A stretch of 64,000 bases of DNA from a virus, in the IMG/VR virus record IMGVR_UViG_3300048919_000175, positions 1-64,000 of that record. One strand, 5' to 3'. The translations under genes were made by a program, and so were the position numbers. The notes under the pieces are model-generated. The model saw nothing but the letters and a program-made list of their open reading frames with translations. It did not search any database and was not told where the DNA came from. Shown piece after piece: positions 29,690 through 50,543 of the stretch. How positions within the stretch are numbered: the stretch's first letter is position 1; every line of letters starts with the position of its first letter.

Positions 29690-29892
29690 TCTCTGTTACC
29701 GCCCAATAGTAATTCAATATTCTTGGAAGCTTCTTTAAGCTCCCGCTGCCACTTCATTAGTTGATCCCGGCTCACCGGTCGTTTCACTTCCAGCGCTAGC
29801 GAGGTTTGCCCGGCTATAGCTCCCGTAACTGTTAGGATTTCCTCCAGTATTGGCCCGGCTCGCGTTGGCTTCTGCACTTGCTTGATCCTCAT
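29686..29892 (-). CDS. Small hypothetical protein overlapping the polymerase 3' end
   Basis: Stop overlaps the primase start (ATGA). Amphipathic helix. Confidence 0.45.
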   Translation of the reverse strand: MRIKQVQKPTRAGPILEEILTVTGAIAGQTSLALEVKRPVSRDQLMKWQRELKEASKNIELLLGGNRE

Positions 29893-32731
29893 GTTTCGGG
29901 TCGATATCCCCAATGTATCGAACCAGCTTAATGTTGATCATTCTAAAATCGCGCGGTACTGTTCCCTTGATGGCGTATAGGGCCTTCAGCGGTCGACCAC
30001 GGTTGATGATCGGCTTAGCGATCGTCTCGTAGTCGAACCGGTTGACTTTGGCATATACGTTATCGCTGTCGTCGGCCAGATGTAAGCCGAGCGAAAGGTG
30101 CGGGCCGGAATACTTGTAGCCGCGCTTCATCACGTTGATGTCTTCGTTCTCATCTTTGGGGTTGATCTTCGCCATGACGACGAATACAAGGACATCATAC
30201 TCTTCTCCTGTAACCTGTACGTCGATGAGGCGCGTGGGCGGAGTGTTTATGTTCCGCTCGCGAGGGTCGGGCATGACCCTCCGGAAGGCGTCTGCAATCG
30301 GAGACAGGCTATCAATTTTTGTTGTCGGATTAGCAAGTAGCTTAGCCGCACGGCTGCTCAAAGGCAAGCCCATTGCGCGTGCGGTCATGATCTCCTGAAC
30401 AATTTTTGGACCAATTCCCTTAACGTTTTGAACGGGTCCTACCAGTAACCGCTCACCATCGATGGTCGCCACGCGCCACTTGTCCGTTGAGTGCTCAGGG
30501 TGGACGGAAATATAGCGGACGCCTTCGTCCAACATTTCACGGAGCGTCGCAAGCTGGCTCTCGACTTTGTCTTTATGCGTAAGCGTAGCAGCCGCGAATT
30601 CAAGAGGGTAGTGAGCCTTGAGGTACGCGCACTGATACGAGATAATTCCATAAGCGACCGCGTGGGATTTATTGAAGCACCAAGCGCCGAAGGCACAGAG
30701 ACTATCCCAAACTGTAAAGGCAACCGCTTCCGGTACGCCCTTTTTCTTACACTCAGCTTTGAAAGGATCGCCAAATCTGTCAAAGTATTCTCGGCCCAAG
30801 CTTTTCGACATGGCCTTGCGCAGATTAGATGTATCCTCCCAAGAAAGGCCACCGACCTCGCGAACAATAGACATGATCTGTTCTTGATAAACAACGACCC
30901 CAAAGGTATCAAGGAGGTAGGGCTCGAAAATCTCGTGCGGGATATCGACTGCCTCCTTTTGGTTCTTTCGCTTGATCCAGTGCGCGGTCGATCCGGATGA
31001 AAGCGGTCCCGGACGCGCGAGCGCGGTGAGACTAACAATGTCGTCAAGGCAGGTGATATTGATTTCCTTGGCCACACGTTGCAGTGCTTGCCCTTCAAAT
31101 TGGAATATGCCCGAATACTTTCTGTCATTGAGAACCTCAAAAGCTTCGGGGTCGTCCAGAGGGATCGTGTCAAGCCATGTATGCGGCTTGTCGATCATTG
31201 CCAAACAATCCTCGAAAATGGAAAGCTGCGTCAGACCGAGCGCGTCGATCTTGAGCAGGTTAAGGTCTTCAGCATCCTTCTTGTTACAGTAGGTGCCGCC
31301 CGTCATGCTATCGACCGCCACGTACTCCTTGATTGGGAGCTCGGTGACGATGACCCCTGCCGCGTGCTGCGACTTGTTGGCCGGGTGGCCTTCCATCCGG
31401 GTTGCAATGTGCATTTCCGGATAGTCCAGCAACAGCCGTTGCCCGGCAGGGGTCAGCTTGAACGTGTCTTCGATGGCGCGCAATGCTCGCGCGTCACCAG
31501 AGGAAGTTTCAATCATACTTTCCAGAACTGGCGTGGTCTTCCATCCCGGAATATTGAGCGAGGCGGCAGCTTCCTTAATAACCGACTTCGGCTTGTACAG
31601 CGAAACCGTGCCAAGGCGAGCGGTACGTTCCTTGCCATAGAGCTGCTCCATATGGGTGAATACCATATGGCGCTTCTGATCCGAGAAGTCGATGTCGATA
31701 TCCGGCAGGTCGAGGCGGTTGATATCGATAAAGCGTTCGAACAGGAGGTTGTATGGTATGGGATCGACCATCGTGATCCCCAAAAGGTAGCATACCAGAC
31801 TGCCCGACGACGAGCCTCGTCCAGGACCGACCATCATATGTTGCTTGGACCATTGGATCATTTCAGAAACGATATAGAAGTAGTCGCCGAAACCCTTCTC
31901 TTCGATCAGGGTAAGCTCACGGTCAAGGCGCGCGCTATAAATCGGGTCCGTGAGGTTGCACCCAAGGCGAAGGGCACCTTCCTCACAAAGTTCTCGGAGA
32001 GACTTCTCTTTGTGTGGTGAGAGCAGTGTGCCGGTCGGGAGATCAGCTGTGCAGCCTTGGACGACCTTGGCGACGTTAGCCCATGCGCCAGCAATGTCCG
32101 CTTCCGTAGCCTCAGATTTTGCAATGGCCATGCGCCATTGATCTGGGTCAAGAATAAACTGCGCATAGCTCTGCGTTGACTTATTGCGGCCCATAATAGT
32201 TTCGTATAGAAACCGGTCGCCGTCATTGGTGTAGCGGTTTTCGCTGCTGGCAATAAACTGAAAGCCGCGCTCCTTGGCCGCACGGAAATACCCAGGATAG
32301 ACGGCTGGCGAGAGCGCAACAAAGACGTGTTCTGCCGGAGCGAGATGTTCGAAGTTAGCACGATGTCCGGCGATAACATATACGCCCTCAGCATTGGCGA
32401 CTTGTTCGTAGGTAAGCAGTGGCGTATAACGAAATTGATTTGTTGCAAGTTCAATGAGGTCGTGGATTGCCGAGACCTTTTCCCGCGCATAGAACGTAAA
32501 TTCGCAAGTTGCGGGGCGCTTATCGTGGATGCCTGTGGTGACATTGATCGTCACTCCATAGATAGGCTTCAACTCCTTCTTCTTGGCCAGCTTGCGCCAC
32601 TGGACGAAGCCAAAGGTTGAGCAAAAGTCTGAGATAGGGGCGGCAGGATAGCCGCACGCCACTAGGCGGTCCATCACTTCTTCAATGTGGCCGACGGAGT
32701 GGTTGTACGAATATCCGGTCATTACCTTCAT
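29735..32731 (-). CDS. dnaE: Family C DNA polymerase (DnaE / Pol III alpha-like)
   Basis: GPGRGSS, LLFERF, PDIDIDF, HAAG, KIDALGL, FNKSHA. Confidence 0.95.
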   Translation of the reverse strand: MKVMTGYSYNHSVGHIEEVMDRLVACGYPAAPISDFCSTFGFVQWRKLAKKKELKPIYGVTINVTTGIHDKRPATCEFTFYAREKVSAIHDLIELATNQFRYTPLLTYEQVANAEGVYVIAGHRANFEHLAPAEHVFVALSPAVYPGYFRAAKERGFQFIASSENRYTNDGDRFLYETIMGRNKSTQSYAQFILDPDQWRMAIAKSEATEADIAGAWANVAKVVQGCTADLPTGTLLSPHKEKSLRELCEEGALRLGCNLTDPIYSARLDRELTLIEEKGFGDYFYIVSEMIQWSKQHMMVGPGRGSSSGSLVCYLLGITMVDPIPYNLLFERFIDINRLDLPDIDIDFSDQKRHMVFTHMEQLYGKERTARLGTVSLYKPKSVIKEAAASLNIPGWKTTPVLESMIETSSGDARALRAIEDTFKLTPAGQRLLLDYPEMHIATRMEGHPANKSQHAAGVIVTELPIKEYVAVDSMTGGTYCNKKDAEDLNLLKIDALGLTQLSIFEDCLAMIDKPHTWLDTIPLDDPEAFEVLNDRKYSGIFQFEGQALQRVAKEINITCLDDIVSLTALARPGPLSSGSTAHWIKRKNQKEAVDIPHEIFEPYLLDTFGVVVYQEQIMSIVREVGGLSWEDTSNLRKAMSKSLGREYFDRFGDPFKAECKKKGVPEAVAFTVWDSLCAFGAWCFNKSHAVAYGIISYQCAYLKAHYPLEFAAATLTHKDKVESQLATLREMLDEGVRYISVHPEHSTDKWRVATIDGERLLVGPVQNVKGIGPKIVQEIMTARAMGLPLSSRAAKLLANPTTKIDSLSPIADAFRRVMPDPRERNINTPPTRLIDVQVTGEEYDVLVFVVMAKINPKDENEDINVMKRGYKYSGPHLSLGLHLADDSDNVYAKVNRFDYETIAKPIINRGRPLKALYAIKGTVPRDFRMINIKLVRYIGDIDPKHEDQASAEANASRANTGGNPNSYGSYSRANLASAGSETTGEPGSTNEVAAGA

Positions 32732-33141
32732 GCTGCTAGCTCCGCTCTGCTGTTCATTATCTCGATTGATTTCTTGAGCGCGTCCATGTAATAGTCCTGC
32801 AGATGTAGCGGGACGTTTTCATATAGCGCATGGACCATGGCCCATTTGCCACGGAGCCGGTCGATGGTGTCTTCGTTCAGCGGAATATAACTGATGTTGA
32901 AGCCAAGGCCCTGCTTGGTGCCGTTGTTCCCTAAACTGACCTGCGCCAGATGCGCAGAGAACAAAGCCGGGTAGCCTAGTGCCTGCATGGCGTGGCCAGC
33001 GCGGCTCACCATTTCACGAAGATGCTCACTGTCGACGATGAAGATATGCTCCTTGGGGCCACCGGCCTCGAACGCCTTGATGCATTCGTTTATCTTGAGC
33101 ATATGCTGGTTGGGTCCGCGCTTCCTGCTGGAGTTGATCAT
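32728..33141 (-). CDS. Hypothetical protein
   Basis: Translationally coupled on both sides. Confidence 0.6.
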   Translation of the reverse strand: MINSSRKRGPNQHMLKINECIKAFEAGGPKEHIFIVDSEHLREMVSRAGHAMQALGYPALFSAHLAQVSLGNNGTKQGLGFNISYIPLNEDTIDRLRGKWAMVHALYENVPLHLQDYYMDALKKSIEIMNSRAELAA

Positions 33142-33689
33142 AGTATTCCCCTGTTGATTAGCTCTATATAGCATTTGGCGAGAGCTCGTGTGTCTGGCTC
33201 CGCTCTGTGATGGTCGGCAAAGTCAAAGCCGAACAACTCTGTGTGCAATGCCCCAAGGTTTAGTCGGTATCCCTTGAGCCATTCGGTCCCTTCAATGGTG
33301 CAGATTACCTCCGGCCATTCAATGGTCTGGTCGACGCGACGCATGTCGAAGTTGGTCATGTCCACGTCGTAGCCCGCATTGTGCGCCACGACGCGATCAT
33401 GCGCCTCAATTGTCTCTTTGACTTTAGGAGCGAAGTGCCGGAACTCCGGCACGTTCTTGAGCAGGTCTGGCGTAATGCCAGTGATGCGGGTCGTCTCTGC
33501 CGTAATGGCGAATGGCGGTCGGCAGAGAAAGCTCAGCGTCGGGGCTGTCTCAAGGTAGCCCGGCTCATTCATCAGGTCATGGTCAACCGTGATCCCAAAG
33601 AATTCAATGATGTAGGGTTGGTCCTTGAGCGGACGACCAATGTTCTCGATGAGATTGGTCGTTTCCGTATCCCATACGAATGATTTCAT
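33138..33689 (-). CDS. DEDDh 3'-5' exonuclease (DnaQ/epsilon-like)
   Basis: WDTETT, AHNAGYD, HRAEPD. Confidence 0.9.
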   Translation of the reverse strand: MKSFVWDTETTNLIENIGRPLKDQPYIIEFFGITVDHDLMNEPGYLETAPTLSFLCRPPFAITAETTRITGITPDLLKNVPEFRHFAPKVKETIEAHDRVVAHNAGYDVDMTNFDMRRVDQTIEWPEVICTIEGTEWLKGYRLNLGALHTELFGFDFADHHRAEPDTRALAKCYIELINRGIL

Positions 33690-34192
33690 TACAGCACCGT
33701 CGGCGGTACGACCTTGCCTTCGGGCGCTTCCGGCAACAACTCGGGCGGCGGCGGAGGCTCTTCTGCGGTCAGCGCCAGCTCACTATCGTCAAAGACTAAC
33801 GGCTTGCCCGGCACGATCGGATTTACCGGGAACGTGTAGGTGCTGGCCTCAGGTTCCTTGGGGAACATGTCTGCCGTAGCTTCGTCCAAGGCTGCACGCT
33901 CTTCGCTGTCCAGTTCCTGGAGCATCTGCGTGTACACGGTCATATCGTCGAGGCTGTCCGGATGCCCGCCCTTTGCGAAATTCTCGCAATAGCGCGTCAG
34001 CTTGGCGACCACTTGGGTCAGGATGCCGAACCGATTATGGTCGGCACGGTCTTGCAGTTCGACGCCAGCCGGAAACAGGGCGTTCATGACTTCACCATGG
34101 CGCTTGTAATTGTCGCCATAGAGCTTGTTGCGTTCTTCATAGATACCGGCTGCATCGCGCAGGGCTTGCGGTACTGATTTAATCTCGGTCAT
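33689..34192 (-). CDS. DUF6378-like all-alpha protein, nucleotide-metabolism associated
   Basis: A....ER...YG, K..R, H.DS..D...Y pattern. Confidence 0.6.
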   Translation of the reverse strand: MTEIKSVPQALRDAAGIYEERNKLYGDNYKRHGEVMNALFPAGVELQDRADHNRFGILTQVVAKLTRYCENFAKGGHPDSLDDMTVYTQMLQELDSEERAALDEATADMFPKEPEASTYTFPVNPIVPGKPLVFDDSELALTAEEPPPPPELLPEAPEGKVVPPTVL

Positions 34193-34632
34193 CCCAGAAC
34201 TCCATTGCGGACCTGCCAGCATTCAACGCCAGCGTTGCGATAAGCCTCGACCACATCGTCCTTGTGGTCAAGTGCGAGGTAGTGACCGTCGCCATAATTG
34301 CGACGTATCTCTTCAAGATACTGCATCTTCAGTATCGGCTCCTTCGTCTTGGGGATATCGTACTTGTCACGATACATCACCCAATCTGGGTAAATCCCAT
34401 ACTTGCCGAGCCAAGCATTCGTCTGGAATTCCCACTGCTGGTAGCGCACAGTTACGATGACGAAGCGATATTCTTCGTGCATCAATAGCCGGACTGCCGA
34501 AACCGTATTCTGGAACGGGAGGTCGTCTACACACGCGGCCTCGTATTCGTCCCAAAGCCCGGCCTTGAACAAATGCTGGCGGTGGGAATTGTCCGCCAGC
34601 ACGCCTTCGAGACTTGCGATGACTACCAACAT
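34189..34632 (-). CDS. HAD-fold PNKP-phosphatase-like protein with degenerate motif I
   Basis: ASLEGVLAD.SHR replaces FDxDG. Also T..WL, K, and LDHK..VVE.YR..G. Confidence 0.7.
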   Translation of the reverse strand: MLVVIASLEGVLADNSHRQHLFKAGLWDEYEAACVDDLPFQNTVSAVRLLMHEEYRFVIVTVRYQQWEFQTNAWLGKYGIYPDWVMYRDKYDIPKTKEPILKMQYLEEIRRNYGDGHYLALDHKDDVVEAYRNAGVECWQVRNGVLG

Positions 34633-35192
34633 TATTCGGTAGCCTCAGCTTTGGCGCTCACACCGATAATATAACGCAGCCAAGCGGCCCATCCTAGAAC
34701 ACTGACGCTAGGGTCCCGCTGCGCTGCACGGAAAGCATCCATGCATTTCGAAAATCCGAACTGCATATCGGCAATTGTCTGGAAGTGCATATCGGTCGCT
34801 TCCGACAACATGACGTTCGAGCCATGACCAAAGCCGCTGAACGTAATGATAGGGCCGGTCCAGTCGTCATGGTCCTCGCGAGCGCGGCGCTGGTGAACCA
34901 TGAAGCCAAGCTCGAATGCCGTGCCAGTGTCGCGGTCATCGATGCAAGCGATGATCCCGAAGCTTTCTTCCATAGCGTCGACGTTGCGGGTGTAAATCTC
35001 GCTGGTATGGCGAGCGCGCATCTCGGGAGCCATGTCGACAAGCACAGGGCTCAGGTCGCGCGGGTCGCACACGGCAAACCCGCTCGTTTCCAGAAAGCTC
35101 TTGGCGGTGTCCATAGTGCGCTTTTGCTGGTCGTTGAAGAACGGACCGGCGAGGTAGAAATCGTACTTGTAACCTTCGCAGATGAGGGCCAT
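34632..35192 (-). CDS. Nucleoside 2-deoxyribosyltransferase / nucleotide N-glycosidase family protein
   Basis: YLAGPFF, DTGTAFELG, NVML. Confidence 0.88.
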   Translation of the reverse strand: MALICEGYKYDFYLAGPFFNDQQKRTMDTAKSFLETSGFAVCDPRDLSPVLVDMAPEMRARHTSEIYTRNVDAMEESFGIIACIDDRDTGTAFELGFMVHQRRAREDHDDWTGPIITFSGFGHGSNVMLSEATDMHFQTIADMQFGFSKCMDAFRAAQRDPSVSVLGWAAWLRYIIGVSAKAEATE

Positions 35193-35194
35193 GA

Positions 35195-36322
35195 TTATGC
35201 TCCTTGGTCCGGGGTGTATTGCAGATAAGCCTGTTGCCAGAAATGATTGGTGATCGGCCTGTGCTGCATATACCTGAGGATTTCAACGCGCTGCTCGGCC
35301 GATGGCTCAATGCCCTCTTGGCTGAGCCAGATCGGGCACGGCGGAGCCGGGTCCTTGCCTTCCTGACGCAACATGTTGTCGCGCCCTACCGGGCAGCTGA
35401 TGCAGGTGTCGCACGGTAGCGGCACGCCGACCTGTTCGTATTCCGTTTCGAACAGGGTGTTCAGCCGCTGGATGATCGGCGACCAGAGGTCCTCCTGCGC
35501 GATCCAGCAATTGCGCTTGCGCACCATGCTGAACGCAACCTCGCGGGTCATCATGAGTTGCATGTCGACCAAGGAGTTGATTGGCTTGCACATGTCATAA
35601 TAGTTGAGATAGCGGTGTAGCGTGTCGAACATCAGCACCGGCCGATGGCGCGTGACCTGCGCTCGCAACGCAATCGGAACTTGGGGCACGTCAACGATTA
35701 CGAAATGGCCTGAGAAGCCTCCGTTGCTCGCGTGCGTGTATTTCGGCAGGAGTTCCATTGCGCCGTAGTGATCAATCTTCAGCTTGCCGTATGGCGTATA
35801 ATCGATCGCTCGTTTCAACTCCCGGCTCATTTCCCAGAACGGGCTGCTCTCCAGCTGTGACATGCTCGACGCCAGACGATCCAATGCGGCACAGAACCGC
35901 ATCAGGGTCCTTGCCGACAACTTGATCGTGAAGCCGGTAATGTAGCAGAGCGGCAAAAGCAGTCGGAAATGATCCTGCAATCCAGATAACCGGGCCTCCA
36001 GCATCTGCGCATGGGCCTTGATCACAAGTTGTTCGTCCTGCCAGAGCGGGTGCACCGGCCAATCGTTCAGGTTGTCCACCCGACTTGTCCTCGCCCATGC
36101 CACATGGTCCCTGATCGTGAAAAACATTTCCCGAATGATGATCGGGCAGCGGATTTCGAGAATGAAATCCTCGAGCTCGTTGACTGGCACATCGACCTTC
36201 AGCACGTCCATCAGGTCAATAATGTCTTCGTTGGGGCGCGAGTGGCCCCAAGCTTTCGCCGTAATGACGCCATCCGGTGACCGAATGACCTTCACACTGA
36301 TTGGTTCTCCGTAAACTGCCAT
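35195..36322 (-). CDS. Divergent tandem ThyX-like flavoprotein with C-terminal Cys cluster
   Basis: ThyX-like segments TSR, FRLLLP...T......RTLMRF, QVTRHR, RNCWIAQ, plus CDTCISCP...CP. Confidence 0.6.
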   Translation of the reverse strand: MAVYGEPISVKVIRSPDGVITAKAWGHSRPNEDIIDLMDVLKVDVPVNELEDFILEIRCPIIIREMFFTIRDHVAWARTSRVDNLNDWPVHPLWQDEQLVIKAHAQMLEARLSGLQDHFRLLLPLCYITGFTIKLSARTLMRFCAALDRLASSMSQLESSPFWEMSRELKRAIDYTPYGKLKIDHYGAMELLPKYTHASNGGFSGHFVIVDVPQVPIALRAQVTRHRPVLMFDTLHRYLNYYDMCKPINSLVDMQLMMTREVAFSMVRKRNCWIAQEDLWSPIIQRLNTLFETEYEQVGVPLPCDTCISCPVGRDNMLRQEGKDPAPPCPIWLSQEGIEPSAEQRVEILRYMQHRPITNHFWQQAYLQYTPDQGA

Positions 36323-36327
36323 TGTTC

Positions 36328-36975
36328 TTATAGTCCCCTGAAAAATGCGCCGAATGTAATATCGCCGCGCCGGGACTGGAGCAGGATATCATGCAGCTCT
36401 GTGACGACCGGATGCAGACAAGTTCCCTTGAGTGCCCAATCGAGTTTGGTTATTTCGCCCATGATCTCTTCAGAGACGCGGATGAAAGACTTGTTGCCGT
36501 ACATAGCAACCTCGGTCATCGTTTTGTAGACAACCGCCGCCATGTCTGCCACCTTTAGGATGAGACCCTCAAGGCTATCGTCCTTGGCATTCTCCCAGTC
36601 ATACATGATGCTGATGTCTAGGAGTTCTTCGATTTTGCTGATGGCGAGCCGGCCATAGGCGTCAATGCCTTCCTTGACTTCCGGGCTGCAATACTTGGTC
36701 TTGCGAGAAACATCGCCCGTGATCGTTTCCTCAAGGTCATGCAACGTGGCGCGGATGATCAGCCTGCCGACGTCGATCCCAACGCCCTGCTCCAGCAACC
36801 GGGCCGAGATGATCAGGCAAAACAGCGCGGAGAAGCCAATATGCTCCAACACGCTTTCTTCCTTGACCATGAAGTCGCGGGAGTAGCGCCGCACATTGCT
36901 GAGCTGCGCTATAATCTCCAACGTGTTTTGGACCGCCCTGTCGGGCAGCTTGTGCCGTTCGAGGATGTTCTGCAT
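36328..36975 (-). CDS. HD-domain 5'-deoxynucleotidase (YfbR-like)
   Basis: RRY, ESVLEH, LHDLEE..TGD, KVAD. Confidence 0.9.
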   Translation of the reverse strand: MQNILERHKLPDRAVQNTLEIIAQLSNVRRYSRDFMVKEESVLEHIGFSALFCLIISARLLEQGVGIDVGRLIIRATLHDLEETITGDVSRKTKYCSPEVKEGIDAYGRLAISKIEELLDISIMYDWENAKDDSLEGLILKVADMAAVVYKTMTEVAMYGNKSFIRVSEEIMGEITKLDWALKGTCLHPVVTELHDILLQSRRGDITFGAFFRGL

Positions 36976-42991: not shown

Positions 42992-43471
42992 ATGAATATG
43001 TTTGGTTTTGGTAAGAAGAAATCGATCCTTGGCGCGGCTGCATCGGCTGCCTTCAAGGAAATGAATGCCGGTCAGCAGGAGAACCTTGACTTCCTGGAAG
43101 CCGCTGCTTCTGGCACGGCACTGGTCGCTACGGTCGACGGCAATGCTGACAGCGCCGAGCGCAACAAGGCGATCTCGGTGATCACCAAGAACAAGATACT
43201 CGGCCCGATCTTCAGCCAGCAGCAGGTCGAGGGCATGGTCAATGCCTACATCGACAAGGCTTCCGACAGCGCCGGTAAGAACGAACTGGTCAACGAGCTC
43301 AAGGACCTGAAGAACCACGAGAAGGGCGGCGAGTACGCCAAGCAGGTCTATCTGATGGCGAAGGACGTTGCCAATGCCGACGGCGGTATCGGCGACCGTG
43401 AGCAGAAGGCGCTGGACATCCTCGCCGGTATCCTCGGCGTCAATCCGCAGGACTTCGCGTTCGACTTCTGA
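42992..43471 (+). CDS. terB: TerB-family protein
   Basis: FLEA......LVA.VDG....ER and VA.ADG.I...E...L..LA..LG. Confidence 0.85.
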   Translation: MNMFGFGKKKSILGAAASAAFKEMNAGQQENLDFLEAAASGTALVATVDGNADSAERNKAISVITKNKILGPIFSQQQVEGMVNAYIDKASDSAGKNELVNELKDLKNHEKGGEYAKQVYLMAKDVANADGGIGDREQKALDILAGILGVNPQDFAFDF

Positions 43472-45565: not shown

Positions 45566-46723
45566 GTACCGGCCGATCATCGAGCAGGAAATCGATACGC
45601 TGGATGGATCGCCGAAAGGTCCAGCCGTCACAATTTCTTGGGAGGAAGTCACGAGTGACTATCCTGCCACGTACGAAGCCATTATCGAAATGGCAACAGT
45701 CGCAGCCAAGTATCTCGATAATGGAGGAAGCCTTCCGCATAACGCCTATACCGGAATTGGTAGCGAGAATATTAAGCAGGGCAGCAAAGTCATCAAGTAC
45801 GAGCTCGGCGCGTACACGGGCAAAGTCGACGAGCTCTACGAAGTCGACGGCAAAACCCTCGCGTCGATCGTCTGGGACGAAGGCTGCGTCACGGACGACA
45901 TCGAAGTAACCGATCTCGTTCTTGCGGAGGAGGGCTGACATGGCGCTGCTAGCATATATTGAAATAGACTACTACACTGCACAGCGCCACAAAATCGCAG
46001 CTATGGACCGGGAGACCTATGAGCGAGTGCGCCAAGACATTCCTGCGCTGAACCTTTCAGAATGGCAGGAAGGCAAGAACGAAGCGCCTACGTGGTATGG
46101 CATCGGCAGCAACGCCATGATTGATCTTGAGACCGACGGCAAGGTTATTGCCGAGTTAGGGATTGACTTCAAGGTCAAGCGTTTCAAGGGCGCTTATTTC
46201 GCCGGTCAGCCGGTCGGCAGATATCAAACCGAGATCAAGGGCAGCGCTGAGATGAACGTCGGCACGCTCATTCAAGTGTCAATCCCAGATCTTGCGTTGC
46301 TACATATCACCGAGGTCAAGGTCCTGGAAGATTGCTGCACGGACAGTCTGAACGACGAGCTGGAGGCTGGCTGGCGGATCATCGCAGTTTGCCCGCCGAA
46401 CTCGCAACGTCGGCCGGATTACGTGTTGGGGCGGCGCACGTGATCTATGAATGTTTCTTGGTCGCTGCCGCAATCTCGATCCTTGTGGGACTTGCCTGAT
46501 GGATATCGAAGACCTCAAGACGGAGAATATCCGTTTACGAAAAGCTCTCACCTTGGCCGAGCTGAGCAACGGCGGGTTGCTGGCCAAGGTGCGGGCGCTG
46601 GAGCATCGCTCCAAGAGGCGCATGAAGACGATAAACGATCTTAAGCGCAAATATCAACAGGCCAAGAAAGATTTGCTCTTGGTCAAAGCATTATGGGACG
46701 GCGGAAGTCATGAACAGAAATAG
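45510..46723 (+). other. Three hypothetical ORFs (45510-45938, 45940-46443, 46451-46723)
   Basis: Contiguous ORFs with RBSs. Confidence 0.6.
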
Positions 46724-47348
46724 ACCTACGATCTACATCGCCAGCAAGGCGCACCACGGGGCGAAGTGGAAGGAGCTGATCGATCATTGGGAGCGCTCCG
46801 AACACGAGTATAAGCCGCAGTTCATCATGACGTGGATACACGAAAGCGAGCCCGGCGAAACGTCAGACTGGACAAGGCTCTGGTCCGGTTGCATCTATGA
46901 AGCCGGTGCAGCCGATTACTTCATCGCCTACTTCGAGGAAGGCGAAACTCACTCTGGTCTGTTCGTCGAGCTCGGCGCAGCGCTGGCCGAAGGCAGACAG
47001 GTCTACGCCGTCAATATGCCGAACTACAAGATCGGCAAATACGCCATGATCAATCACGTCCAGGACATGGGCCAAGCCGTCGGCGCAATCCTCGGGGATT
47101 GGCGCACTCGCATAATGACCGCAGACCCTGTCACGCGGTTCAGTCTTACGGTGTCGATCCCCAACGAGGAGTTGCCGCCCGTGCCGATCTGCCAGAAGCT
47201 GATCAACTTTGCGGAACGCTCCCTGCGCGCTGAGCTGATCGCAACGGCGCTGAAGTATAAGCTGGAAGCCGTGACCCAAGTCCAGACGCAGCTCGGCAAT
47301 GAATACGCGACCATTCAGGCTAACCTGAGCGCCGCTGCCGAAACCTGA
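46710..47348 (+). CDS. Second NDT-like (nucleoside deoxyribosyltransferase fold) protein
   Basis: IYIASK, E...AD, G..VELGAAL..G..V. Confidence 0.7.
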   Translation: MNRNRPTIYIASKAHHGAKWKELIDHWERSEHEYKPQFIMTWIHESEPGETSDWTRLWSGCIYEAGAADYFIAYFEEGETHSGLFVELGAALAEGRQVYAVNMPNYKIGKYAMINHVQDMGQAVGAILGDWRTRIMTADPVTRFSLTVSIPNEELPPVPICQKLINFAERSLRAELIATALKYKLEAVTQVQTQLGNEYATIQANLSAAAET

Positions 47349-49447: not shown

Positions 49448-49519
49448 TTAACTTGTCATTAACCATTCTGCATTTAGTTCCAGAAAGTGGCTTGCATTAT
49501 TGGACCGAACCATTATGTT
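49448..49519 (+). promoter_or_regulatory. CtrA box plus sigma70-like promoter
   Basis: TTAA-CTTGTCA-TTAAC, then TTGCAT-16-TATGTT. Confidence 0.7.
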
Positions 49520-49568
49520 GCTCTCATCGGCAACGGAACTGAGACGGTTCCAAAAAGGAGTAATGAAA

Positions 49569-50543
49569 ATGACAGCAGCAGTTGAAAGCATGGCATACGT
49601 TGGTGCGACCCCGTGGCACGGTCTCGGCGCAAAGCTGGAAGGCATTGTCGGCGTTGACGAAATGACGAAGGCCGCTGGCCTCGACTGGCAGGTTTCGCAG
49701 CATCCAATGTTCTGCCAGATCGGCGACGAGCAGGTTGCGATCCCCAACAAGGTTGCGGTAACACGCGACACCGACAAGAAAATTCTCTCGGTCTCTTCCG
49801 ACGCATGGAAGCCGCTGCAGAACCGCGACCTGATGGAGTTCTTCCGCGAATATGTGGATGCAGGCGCGGCAACGCTGGAAACGGCTGGCTCGCTCCGCGA
49901 CGGGAAGATCATTTGGGGTCTGGCCAACATCAACAAGGGCTTTACCCTGAAAGGCCGCGACAAGGTTGACGGCTATATCCTGCTCAGCAACAGCCACGAG
50001 CCGGGCTCTTCCATCCGCGTCATGACCACGATGGTCCGCGTGGTTTGCCAGAACACGCTGAGCCTTGCTCATAGCCGTGGCAAGGACGAATATCGCCAGT
50101 CGCACGTCAAGGACTTTGACGTAAGCGCCGCAAAGCAGACGATCGAGCTGGCCCGCGAAGCCGTGGACCTGCACAAGGAAGAGGCCATTGCGCTTTCCAA
50201 GCTGGAGCTCAGCGCCTTCGACGCCATGAAGGTACTTGCCAAGCACTTCCAGCCGGAAATGGCCGAGGACGATCTGGACGTGAAACTGCTGATGCAGGTT
50301 CCGGCCGCACAAAGCCCGGTCCTTTCGGACGTGCTGTACTCGGTTGTCTCAGCGCCCGGCGCACTGCCTGAAAGCGCTTGGGGCTTGCTGAACGGCGTGA
50401 CCCACTACTTCGACCACGTTGCCGGTCGTTCGCCGACGCAGCGCCTGATTAATGGCACGTTTGGCAAGAACTCGCAGGTCAAGTTGGACGTGCGCAAGGA
50501 CCTGCTGGAAATGGCAAACTACGACATGGCCCGCGCCGCATGA
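49569..50543 (+). CDS. DUF932-family protein
   Basis: MAYVG.TPWHGLG, LQN, ETAGSL..G, NSH, RVVCQNT, AWGL.N.VT...DH. Confidence 0.88.
   Translation: MTAAVESMAYVGATPWHGLGAKLEGIVGVDEMTKAAGLDWQVSQHPMFCQIGDEQVAIPNKVAVTRDTDKKILSVSSDAWKPLQNRDLMEFFREYVDAGAATLETAGSLRDGKIIWGLANINKGFTLKGRDKVDGYILLSNSHEPGSSIRVMTTMVRVVCQNTLSLAHSRGKDEYRQSHVKDFDVSAAKQTIELAREAVDLHKEEAIALSKLELSAFDAMKVLAKHFQPEMAEDDLDVKLLMQVPAAQSPVLSDVLYSVVSAPGALPESAWGLLNGVTHYFDHVAGRSPTQRLINGTFGKNSQVKLDVRKDLLEMANYDMARAA

Follow-up and report, generated by a model that had tools for sequence, protein, structure and literature searches.

In a complete genome of an uncultured phage, three adjacent minus-strand genes encode an HD-domain phosphohydrolase, an atypical relative of the flavin-dependent thymidylate synthase ThyX, and a protein of the nucleoside 2-deoxyribosyltransferase (NDT) family. 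The DNA analysed here, called the window, comprises positions 1-64,000 of the 75,899-bp IMG/VR record IMGVR_UViG_3300048919_000175. On balance, the comparative analysis leads us to favour the view that these three genes form a self-contained cassette supplying a 5-substituted deoxyuridine nucleotide other than, or besides, deoxythymidine monophosphate (dTMP). The fold of the ThyX-like protein, its tandem architecture and split motif, the linkage of the trio, its substitution for the single-domain Thy1 gene that sister phages have in this slot, and the homology to proteins of phages with hypermodified DNA were all observed.

The HD gene (36328-36975, 215 aa), the ThyX-like gene (35195-36322, 375 aa) and the NDT gene (34632-35192, 186 aa) head a run of five minus-strand open reading frames (ORFs), continued by a HAD/PNKP-phosphatase-like gene (34189-34632) and a DUF6378-like gene (33689-34222). 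The junctions are overlaps of 1-34 nt or gaps of 2-5 nt, indicating that the five ORFs are translationally coupled, as an earlier note on this DNA had proposed; a scan of the block found no promoter- or terminator-like signal above chance between them.

Linkage and distribution of the three genes

A scan of IMG/VR with a profile of the ThyX-like family gave 79 viral loci. The NDT gene is present at all 79 and the HD gene at 74, most of the remainder being truncated contigs; the trio is always contiguous and its order permutes (HD-T-N, T-N-HD and T-HD-N, T being the ThyX-like and N the NDT gene). A single-domain Thy1 gene accompanies the trio at none of the 79 loci (0/79). This survey of gene neighbourhoods bears out the association of the HD, ThyX-like and NDT genes and not the five-gene unit first described, the HAD-like, DUF6378-like and exonuclease genes going with the DnaE polymerase gene.

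Of 1.84 billion cluster representatives (50% identity), 598 belong to the ThyX-like family at E<=1e-3 and 195 at E<=1e-30; the length of the protein is conserved, and the family is virus-only: in 185,579 prokaryotic species, one genome each, a single locus was found, on a 76-kb phage-like contig. This contig (CAZCMS010000002.1, 76,146 bp; L090), binned in a Candidatus Saccharibacteria metagenome-assembled genome, encodes a ThyX-like protein 62% identical to that of the window and is probably a mis-binned phage genome, a near relative of this phage.

A Rosetta-stone search for fusions brought out two long members of the family, one of them fused to a DUF559 endonuclease, whereas the N-terminal region of the other matched nothing recognisable and differs from the HD protein. 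The DUF559-ThyX-like fusion was seen in one metagenomic gene call (P0136). In Yersinia phage YerA41 a DUF559 endonuclease gene (YerA41_080, L001:7223-7987) lies directly upstream of the ThyX-like gene; the gene arrangement hints at an association of homing endonucleases with this gene.

Replacement of ThyX beside DnaE

The linkage was also examined in the reverse direction. A DnaE profile was built from the loci, the best 80 DnaE relatives were taken, and the 42 loci whose sequence extends 4 kb or more upstream of the exonuclease or DUF6378-like gene were counted. A single-domain Thy1 gene was found in 33, the trio in six, neither in three and both in none; the sister Thy1 proteins match the full Pfam Thy1 model (1e-30 to 3e-42) and are encoded 1-3 kb upstream. 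Given 33 loci against six and no locus with both, the trio is a cassette present whole or not at all, and it takes the slot of an ordinary ThyX. Since it is ThyX that is replaced, the cassette serves the thymidine position; by itself the replacement is silent on whether the product is dTMP or not.

An ordinary supply of thymidylate would also account for such a pattern. The tandem protein would then be a functional flavin-dependent thymidylate synthase in the form of a fused pseudo-dimer, with half as many active sites, and the HD and NDT enzymes would serve in salvage, shifting pools toward deoxythymidine triphosphate (dTTP) in a phage of lower G+C than its host. The use of the same slot as the sister single-domain Thy1, never with both, agrees with this explanation, and so does the fact that the ThyX-like gene is the only thymidylate-synthase-like gene in the five complete genomes of the clade; neither this complete genome nor any of four related ones contains ThyA (PF00303), control genomes being positive. 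One gene, however, is enough in 33 sister phages, yet three are present here, all or none. Overall we consider ordinary supply a tentative and somewhat unlikely explanation.

In most DnaE relatives without the trio the HAD-like family is present, and the DUF6378-like and exonuclease genes also accompany DnaE there. Because all three persist without the trio, they are best regarded as a DnaE module; and as the HAD-like and DUF6378-like genes stand outside the cassette, the HAD-like protein moreover being without its nucleophile, the functional unit consists of three genes and not five.

Beside the sister Thy1 gene we observed a carbamoyltransferase gene (L105:7435-9162), a gene for an Nmad5 'nucleotide modification associated' protein (L101:5946-6653) or one for a Pyr_excise-type DNA glycosylase (L144:7704-8240). 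The slot adjoining DnaE looks like a hot spot for differing thymidine-related cassettes, to judge from gene content.

Relatives in cultured phages with modified thymidine

By tblastn against 50,697 phage records, the ThyX-like protein matched nine: Yersinia phages YerA41 and GN1, Xanthomonas phage phiXF1, Cobetia phage Carin-5, three Vibrio phages and SP-15 (two records). YerA41 gp081 (QSM00782.1) is 31% identical over 87% (1e-40). With the family hidden Markov model (HMM) the matches were 6e-102 for phiXF1 (gp88), 4e-85 for YerA41, 3e-38 for Carin-5 (gp049) and 3e-32 for SP-15 (gp130), and the BFVD model of SP-15 gp130 gave a template-modelling (TM) score of 0.72 over full length. Each of the five cultured carriers examined (YerA41, SP-15, phiXF1, Carin-5 and Vibrio 1.031.O) also has members of the NDT and HD families, the NDT being annotated as a mannosyltransferase in YerA41, and Listeria phage LIS04 also has NDT and HD genes. 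In the Thornevirus phages SP-15 (gp127, L002:6046-6996) and LIS04 (114551-115495) the NDT is a tandem duplication of two NDT domains, and this tandem NDT gene adjoins the tandem ThyX-like gene.

The discovery of the base 5-(4',5'-dihydroxypentyl)uracil in SP-15 dates from 1972. Mass spectrometry has shown that in YerA41, Carin-5 and SP-15 thymidine is replaced by uracil bearing a hydroxypentyl-type linker, phosphate and sugars, a 5-(hydroxypentyl)uracil-type replacement of thymine known only for these three phages; SP-15 retains part of its thymine, while YerA41 DNA is mostly modified (PMC13697223, PMC12686479, PMC5977210). Kropinski et al. guessed that SP-15 gp130, then without homologues, is a hydroxymethyluridylate synthase (PMC5977210), and the Carin-5 paper names YerA41 gp081 that phage's 'thymidylate synthase' (PMC12686479).

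The three phages differ in their complement of synthases: SP-15 has an ordinary ThyX (gp9) and Carin-5 a ThyA (7e-70), each together with the ThyX-like gene, and YerA41 has the ThyX-like gene only. This gene content would fit two different products. It also speaks against ordinary supply, under which the ThyX-like gene would be redundant beside the ThyX of SP-15 and the ThyA of Carin-5, and YerA41, with the ThyX-like gene only, nevertheless has mostly hypermodified thymidine in its DNA (PMC13697223). A short-chain dehydrogenase was considered as the cause of the 16-Da difference between the linkers of SP-15 and Carin-5 and that of YerA41, and was set aside as uninformative, YerA41 having three such genes.

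The earlier note had tied a modified pyrimidine to incorporation by the phage's own DnaE. This part of its proposal is not sustained: the cultured carriers have polymerases of family A, so that the link to the trio is not specific to DnaE.

A tandem ThyX fold with a divided signature

Under the gathering threshold of 24.8 bits, the 375-aa protein matches Pfam Thy1 (PF02511) with 22.4 bits (1.2e-4), and only in residues 102-145; a search of the PDB with the single sequence gave no match, and a family profile was needed. Forty-seven homologues were found and 40 aligned, 31 of which match PF02511 at E<=0.01 (best 1.5e-10). The AlphaFold2 model made from this alignment has a mean predicted local distance difference test (pLDDT) score of 93, and Foldseek matched it to Thermotoga maritima ThyX and to the UMP/dUMP methylase PolB with probability 1.0.

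On the model, the protein consists of a complete ThyX fold, a reduced second ThyX fold and then a helical tail. Domain 1 (residues 1-189; 35756-36322), which holds most universally conserved residues, aligned in VIA-align with the ThyX proteins of Mycobacterium tuberculosis and T. maritima and with PolB at Z 12-13.3 over about 175 residues. Domain 2 comprises residues ~190-300 (35423-35755) and the tail residues 301-375 (35198-35422). Residues 186-375, folded alone (pLDDT 87), were compared without Foldseek, in an unbiased search, with 48,161 representative chains: ThyX or PolB took all of the first five places, with 99-109 aligned residues and Z 5.4-6.8, ahead of an unrelated chain at Z 4.7, and for the helical tail of about 75 residues the search gave no structural match. 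Foldseek also found ThyX with the C-terminal half (probability 1.0, E about 2e-3). The fold is that of ThyX, and the contrary outcome, which the earlier note had named as one that would overturn its interpretation, is not what AlphaFold, Foldseek and VIA gave. As hhalign of domain 1 against domain 2 yielded no signal, the argument for a tandem duplication comes from structure and from a weak HMM match to the RHR region, not from internal sequence similarity.

The two halves divide the ThyX signature between them, as had been noticed from the letters and as sequence, alignment and HMM agree: the first half has T79-S80-R81 and R120-LLL-P124...T129, the second Q222-VT-R225-H226-R227 and R270..A275-Q276. 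When the family profile is aligned with T. maritima ThyX, D117, R120 and R138 of domain 1 correspond to E144, R147 and R165, and in the second half Q222 corresponds to Q75 and R225-H226-R227 to R78-H79-R80. An ungapped motif alignment equates R71, T79 and R81 of domain 1 with R80, S88 and R90; hhalign against a sister-phage Thy1 introduces a 7-residue gap and places R78 at R80, R81 again corresponding to R90. The complete RHR-x7-S-x-R signature is in neither half. Domain 1 reads T-I-R71-x7-T79-S-R81, and domain 2 reads R225-H-R227-x7-L235-H-R237, its positions 235 and 237 not being conserved in the family. The Ser88/Tyr91 pair, reported to be critical in ThyX (PMC11940539), is absent from domain 1, which has T79 and V82 at those positions. 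For ordinary supply the comparison has two sides: one RHR triad survives, as do the Arg residues that bind nucleotide, but the protein scores under the Thy1 cut-off of Pfam and the signature is incomplete in both halves.

The family core comprises W25, S28, R29, D44, R64, R71, W76, A77, T/S79, R81, Q116, D117, R/K120, T129, R138, R225, R270, W280, D315 and R319. Across relatives as distant as about 25% identity, the cultured phages included, about 20 polar residues at active-site positions of ThyX do not vary. Several subunits of the ThyX homotetramer contribute to the active sites, and therefore a fused pseudo-dimer with complementing halves would be the natural structural reading of the model.

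This conservation has a bearing on a further possibility, that the protein is a relic, regulatory or non-catalytic: a duplicated and degenerate ThyX retained in the replisome as a subunit that binds nucleotides or acts as a scaffold. As might be expected of a relic, each half is missing parts of the canonical motifs and the gene lies inside the replication module; but the invariance of the active-site positions, the size of the family (about 195 clusters at E<=1e-30, of conserved length) and the strict link to two enzymes with intact catalytic residues all argue against it, and we find it highly improbable.

The protein also contains the cysteine cluster that the earlier note had considered a candidate zinc or iron-sulphur site. 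The cluster (C304-xx-C307-xx-C310-P...C329-P, in the tail) is indeed present; it is not a feature of the whole family. C304, C310, C329 and C272, the last contributed by domain 2, are invariant across 40 relatives, and C307 is not conserved. Alignment with the proteins of cultured phages showed that the four cysteines are kept in phiXF1 and Carin-5 and replaced in YerA41 by G, L, Y and D; in SP-15 the first three are Q, H and S and the last is kept, and in Vibrio 1.031.O the cysteines of the cluster are also replaced. A family-wide catalytic iron-sulphur site is ruled out by YerA41, SP-15 and Vibrio 1.031.O, which lack the cysteines. Because C307 varies and YerA41 and SP-15 are without the cluster, it is probably structural and outside the common catalytic core of the family; in the subclade of this phage it is possibly a structural metal site.

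The HD and NDT partners

The HD protein matches Pfam PF12917 (YfbR-like) at 1.6e-19 (70.7 bits against a cut-off of 25.9) and is classed as a YfbR-like 5'-deoxynucleotidase. Its family profile has Escherichia coli YfbR as best PDB match (1.3e-18), followed by OxsA (3.6e-9) and DatZ (1.9e-4), and the residues of the metal-binding motif H...HD...D (H45, H79-D80 and D144) are invariant in 19 relatives.

The NDT protein matches Pfam PF05014 at 2.7e-14 (53.7 bits against 28.8). Y13, D88, E94 and N126, in the motifs YLAGPFF, DTGTxxExG and NxM, are conserved and align with solved NDTs; the roles of the Tyr, Asp, Glu and Asn residues are presumably those of the Lactobacillus leichmannii enzyme. The earlier description of the protein as MilB-like does not hold: the NDT profile gives 2.6e-23 to a true NDT (6evs), 0.02 to DNPH1 and 0.17 to a CMP N-glycosidase (4jen), so that in sequence the protein is far closer to true NDTs than to MilB/BlsM-type CMP N-glycosidases or to DNPH1/Rcl. 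By tblastn, the NDT of the window matched five of the 50,697 phage records, four of which carry the ThyX-like gene. A second, very distant NDT-fold-like gene lies in the window on the plus strand (46710-47348, 212 aa); it keeps a VELG motif, matches PF05014 below threshold (1.6e-4) and the trio NDT in hhalign (E 0.023), and has a 38%-identical copy in a related genome (locus L003).

What the cassette may make

We infer every chemical step set out below, and likewise the presence of a modified base in the DNA of this phage. The ThyX-like protein would be a fused pseudo-dimer in which two degenerate folds share residues that different subunits give in the homotetramer, domain 1 providing the equivalents of R80, S88 (as T), R90, E144 (as D), R147 and R165 and domain 2 those of Q75 and R78-H79-R80. 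It would bind deoxyuridine monophosphate (dUMP) and flavin and form a carbon-carbon bond at C5 of uracil, the C5 donor or the outcome differing from reductive methylation. The YfbR-like HD enzyme would convert deoxynucleoside monophosphates to deoxynucleosides, and the NDT would cleave or exchange their glycosidic bond, either purging thymidine or supplying a deoxyribose-derived donor. Host kinases would then make the triphosphate, which DnaE would incorporate.

A product other than dTMP is favoured because three co-inherited genes replace one sister gene, because the ThyX-like gene coexists with conventional thymidylate synthases in cultured phages, because it is the sole candidate in YerA41, whose thymidine is hypermodified, and because the link to NDT is strict. 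Between the two options of the earlier note, an unusual route to dTMP and a modified pyrimidine, the comparative evidence speaks for the second, short of proof.

Several findings weigh on the other side. The exclusion of ordinary ThyX is predicted by functional equivalence, that is, plain dTMP synthesis, as well. The deviating motif and the loss of Tyr91 are weak evidence of new chemistry, because the single-domain Thy1 of sister phages deviates too, being without His79 and Tyr91 (it reads RTR-x7-S-x-R-V, with Val or Thr at Tyr91). The HD family is also present in phages without the ThyX-like and NDT genes (RHph_TM30 and Maribacter phages). Among the ~50 genome ORFs scanned there is no dUMP-supply enzyme, nucleotide kinase, glycosyltransferase or ThyA, and the fact that no downstream tailoring enzymes were seen in the ORFs scanned suits ordinary supply. 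The clade assembles readily from ordinary metagenomes, and therefore a block to sequencing of the YerA41 type is absent. Finally, a literature search found no biochemical characterisation of any member of the ThyX-like family.

If the product is indeed a 5-substituted deoxyuridine nucleotide other than dTMP, two chemistries come into consideration, 5-hydroxymethyl-dUMP and a deoxyribose-derived pentyl chain, which we hold to be about equally likely, each with a small share of the probability. In the first, the ThyX-like protein would be a dUMP hydroxymethylase, transferring the methylene of folate and releasing 5-hydroxymethyl-dUMP, and the HD and NDT enzymes would only purge dTMP and thymidine so that 5-hydroxymethyldeoxyuridine (5-hmdU) takes the place of T; the proposal falls within the non-dTMP reading and differs in its chemistry. 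Such an activity is what Kropinski et al. proposed for SP-15 gp130 (PMC5977210), and the exocyclic methylene of the ThyX mechanism could be hydrated (PMC8989533). It needs no tailoring genes, which suits a small genome, and the Nmad5 and carbamoyltransferase genes beside the sister Thy1 suggest chemistry of the 5-hydroxymethyluracil type at this locus. All characterised dUMP hydroxymethylases, however, are of the ThyA type (PMC8989533), the linkage to NDT (79 of 79 loci and every cultured carrier) is left unexplained, and the linkers of SP-15, YerA41 and Carin-5 are five-carbon chains, for which the 1978 titles cited in PMC5977210, and the titles only, indicate synthesis at the nucleotide level. 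We see a dUMP hydroxymethylase as unlikely.

In the second chemistry, the NDT and the ThyX-like enzyme would together build the five-carbon pentyl side chain. The HD enzyme would make deoxynucleosides and the NDT release or activate their 2-deoxyribose; the ThyX-like flavoenzyme would then join C1 of the sugar to C5 of dUMP in a reductive coupling, the sugar taking the part of the folate methylene, to give a 5-(polyhydroxypentyl)-dUMP. The idea draws on the strict NDT link, on the five-carbon linkers of the cultured phages and on the 1978 papers of Walker and Mandel (cited in PMC5977210), whose titles, as far as titles go, report a side chain labelled from ribose and a synthesis that takes place at the triphosphate level. 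We regard it as a doubtful proposal on present comparative grounds.

Comparison with known systems

With the proteins of cultured phages (YerA41 gp081, SP-15 gp130 and Carin-5 gp049, and also phiXF1 gp88, LIS04 and Vibrio 1.031.O gp026) the ThyX-like protein shares full-length homology and the tandem ThyX architecture; NDT-family and YfbR-like HD partners are common to all, and the ThyX-like proteins occur only in viruses. The cultured phages are myoviruses of 113-222 kb with family-A polymerases and many sugar-tailoring genes, whereas the present phage has 76 kb, a DnaE polymerase and none of these tailoring genes; the three genes are often scattered in the former and contiguous and coupled in the latter. 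Two features divide the group differently: the cysteine cluster is found here and in phiXF1 and Carin-5 and not in YerA41 or SP-15, and the domain 2 motif is RHR here and in YerA41 and RQH in SP-15 and Carin-5.

Canonical ThyX (T. maritima TM0449, M. tuberculosis Rv2754c) and PolB have the same fold (Z about 13 over about 175 residues), and the equivalents of R80, R90, E144, R147 and R165 are in domain 1 and those of Q75 and R78-H79-R80 in domain 2. In contrast with canonical ThyX, one chain here combines two unequal folds with a 75-residue tail and has an obligate link to NDT and HD, domain 1 has Thr for Ser88 and Val for Tyr91, and the Pfam score is under threshold.

Several phages with 5-hmdU pathways also encode DnaE-type polymerases. 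The 5-hmdU hypermodification pathways of M6, ViI, PaMx11, SP10 and PhiW-14 (Lee et al. 2018, 2022) follow a like logic, an enzyme of the thymidylate synthase family making a non-methyl C5 substituent before replication. They employ a ThyA-type hydroxymethylase, followed by 5-HMUDK and aGPT-Pplase acting on DNA after replication (PMC8989533); here there is no ThyA, and 5-HMUDK and aGPT-Pplase were not seen among the ORFs scanned. The Z-genome cluster (PurZ, DatZ and MazZ, S-2L-type) is likewise a compact cassette beside a polymerase gene, in which a nucleotide-biosynthesis paralogue is joined by phosphohydrolases able to remove a canonical nucleotide. It differs in the base concerned (A to Z) and in its enzyme families, the HD protein of the window being nearer to YfbR (1.3e-18) than to DatZ (1.9e-4).

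Genome context

The 75,899-bp genome is complete (direct terminal repeats, CheckV completeness 100%). Structural genes are on the plus strand of the window, and a replication block extends on the minus strand from ~38,500 to 24,800. The clade has no close cultured relative in the phage collection (DnaE identity <=37%), and megablast of the 8.8-kb block against the 50,697 phage records gave no match. The two genes upstream of the five-gene block encode DUFs resembling gp33 and gp34 of Pam3; the earlier note had placed a single-stranded DNA-binding protein there, and no such signature was found in either gene with Pfam in a follow-up check.

Within the DnaE module, all on the minus strand, the HAD-like protein (147 aa) carries Pfam PF25109 (HAD_PNKP; 4.3e-11, 43.6 bits against 27.6), so that its family assignment stands, and it is degenerate at the motif-I nucleophile. 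Motif I reads S7-L-E9-G-V, where distant relatives have D-[LI]-D-G-T and the closest D-L-E-G, the nucleophile Asp being lost; the protein may be inactive or changed in function, though conserved and coupled. The DUF6378-like protein (177 aa) has no Pfam match at E<=0.1 and no PDB sequence match; 11 of 18 relatives match PF19905 weakly (best 4e-4), PF19905 is carried by 10% of the members of one Atlas look-alike cluster, and the Atlas clusters nearest to the protein contain viral members only. Nothing in Pfam, PDB or Atlas speaks for its being an all-alpha pyrophosphatase, as had been suggested, and the family is absent from the five cultured ThyX-like phages. There follow a DnaQ/RNase T-type 3'-5' exonuclease (33138-33689; PF00929 8.5e-20; PHROG 192, 'DNA polymerase exonuclease subunit') and the DnaE-type DNA polymerase III alpha subunit (29735-32731, 998 aa), which in tblastn is ~35% identical over 94% of the protein to annotated phage Pol III alpha genes.

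The early-gene arm of the window encodes, on the plus strand, a TerB-domain protein (42992-43471) and a DUF932 protein (49500-50543). Outside the window, among structural genes, are a 958-aa WD40/beta-propeller protein (genome 70308-73184; L085:6308-9184) and a BNR-repeat protein (L085:9191-10171), which may be tail or receptor-binding proteins.

Significance

The slot replacement, the reassignment of the HAD-like and DUF6378-like genes to the DnaE module and the loss of the cysteine cluster in YerA41 and SP-15 are new in this analysis. Candidate genes for pentyl-type hypermodification are scattered among hundreds in the 113-222 kb genomes of SP-15, YerA41 and Carin-5; the same three enzyme families form here a contiguous, coupled cassette, in a 76-kb genome without other nucleotide-tailoring genes. 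The trio represents a minimal three-gene set, and trio versus plain ThyX in the same backbone is a natural contrast; it may also serve as a marker for predicting modified DNA in viromes. If the pentyl reading were true, this small phage and hundreds of uncultured relatives would carry the pentyl-bearing base in bare, unglycosylated form, and the chemistry of ThyX would comprise, besides one-carbon transfer, alkylation with a sugar aldehyde. If, more generally, the product is not dTMP, the ThyX fold would have acquired a new reaction, and widespread environmental DnaE phages, treated as ordinary in metagenomics, would have non-canonical DNA.

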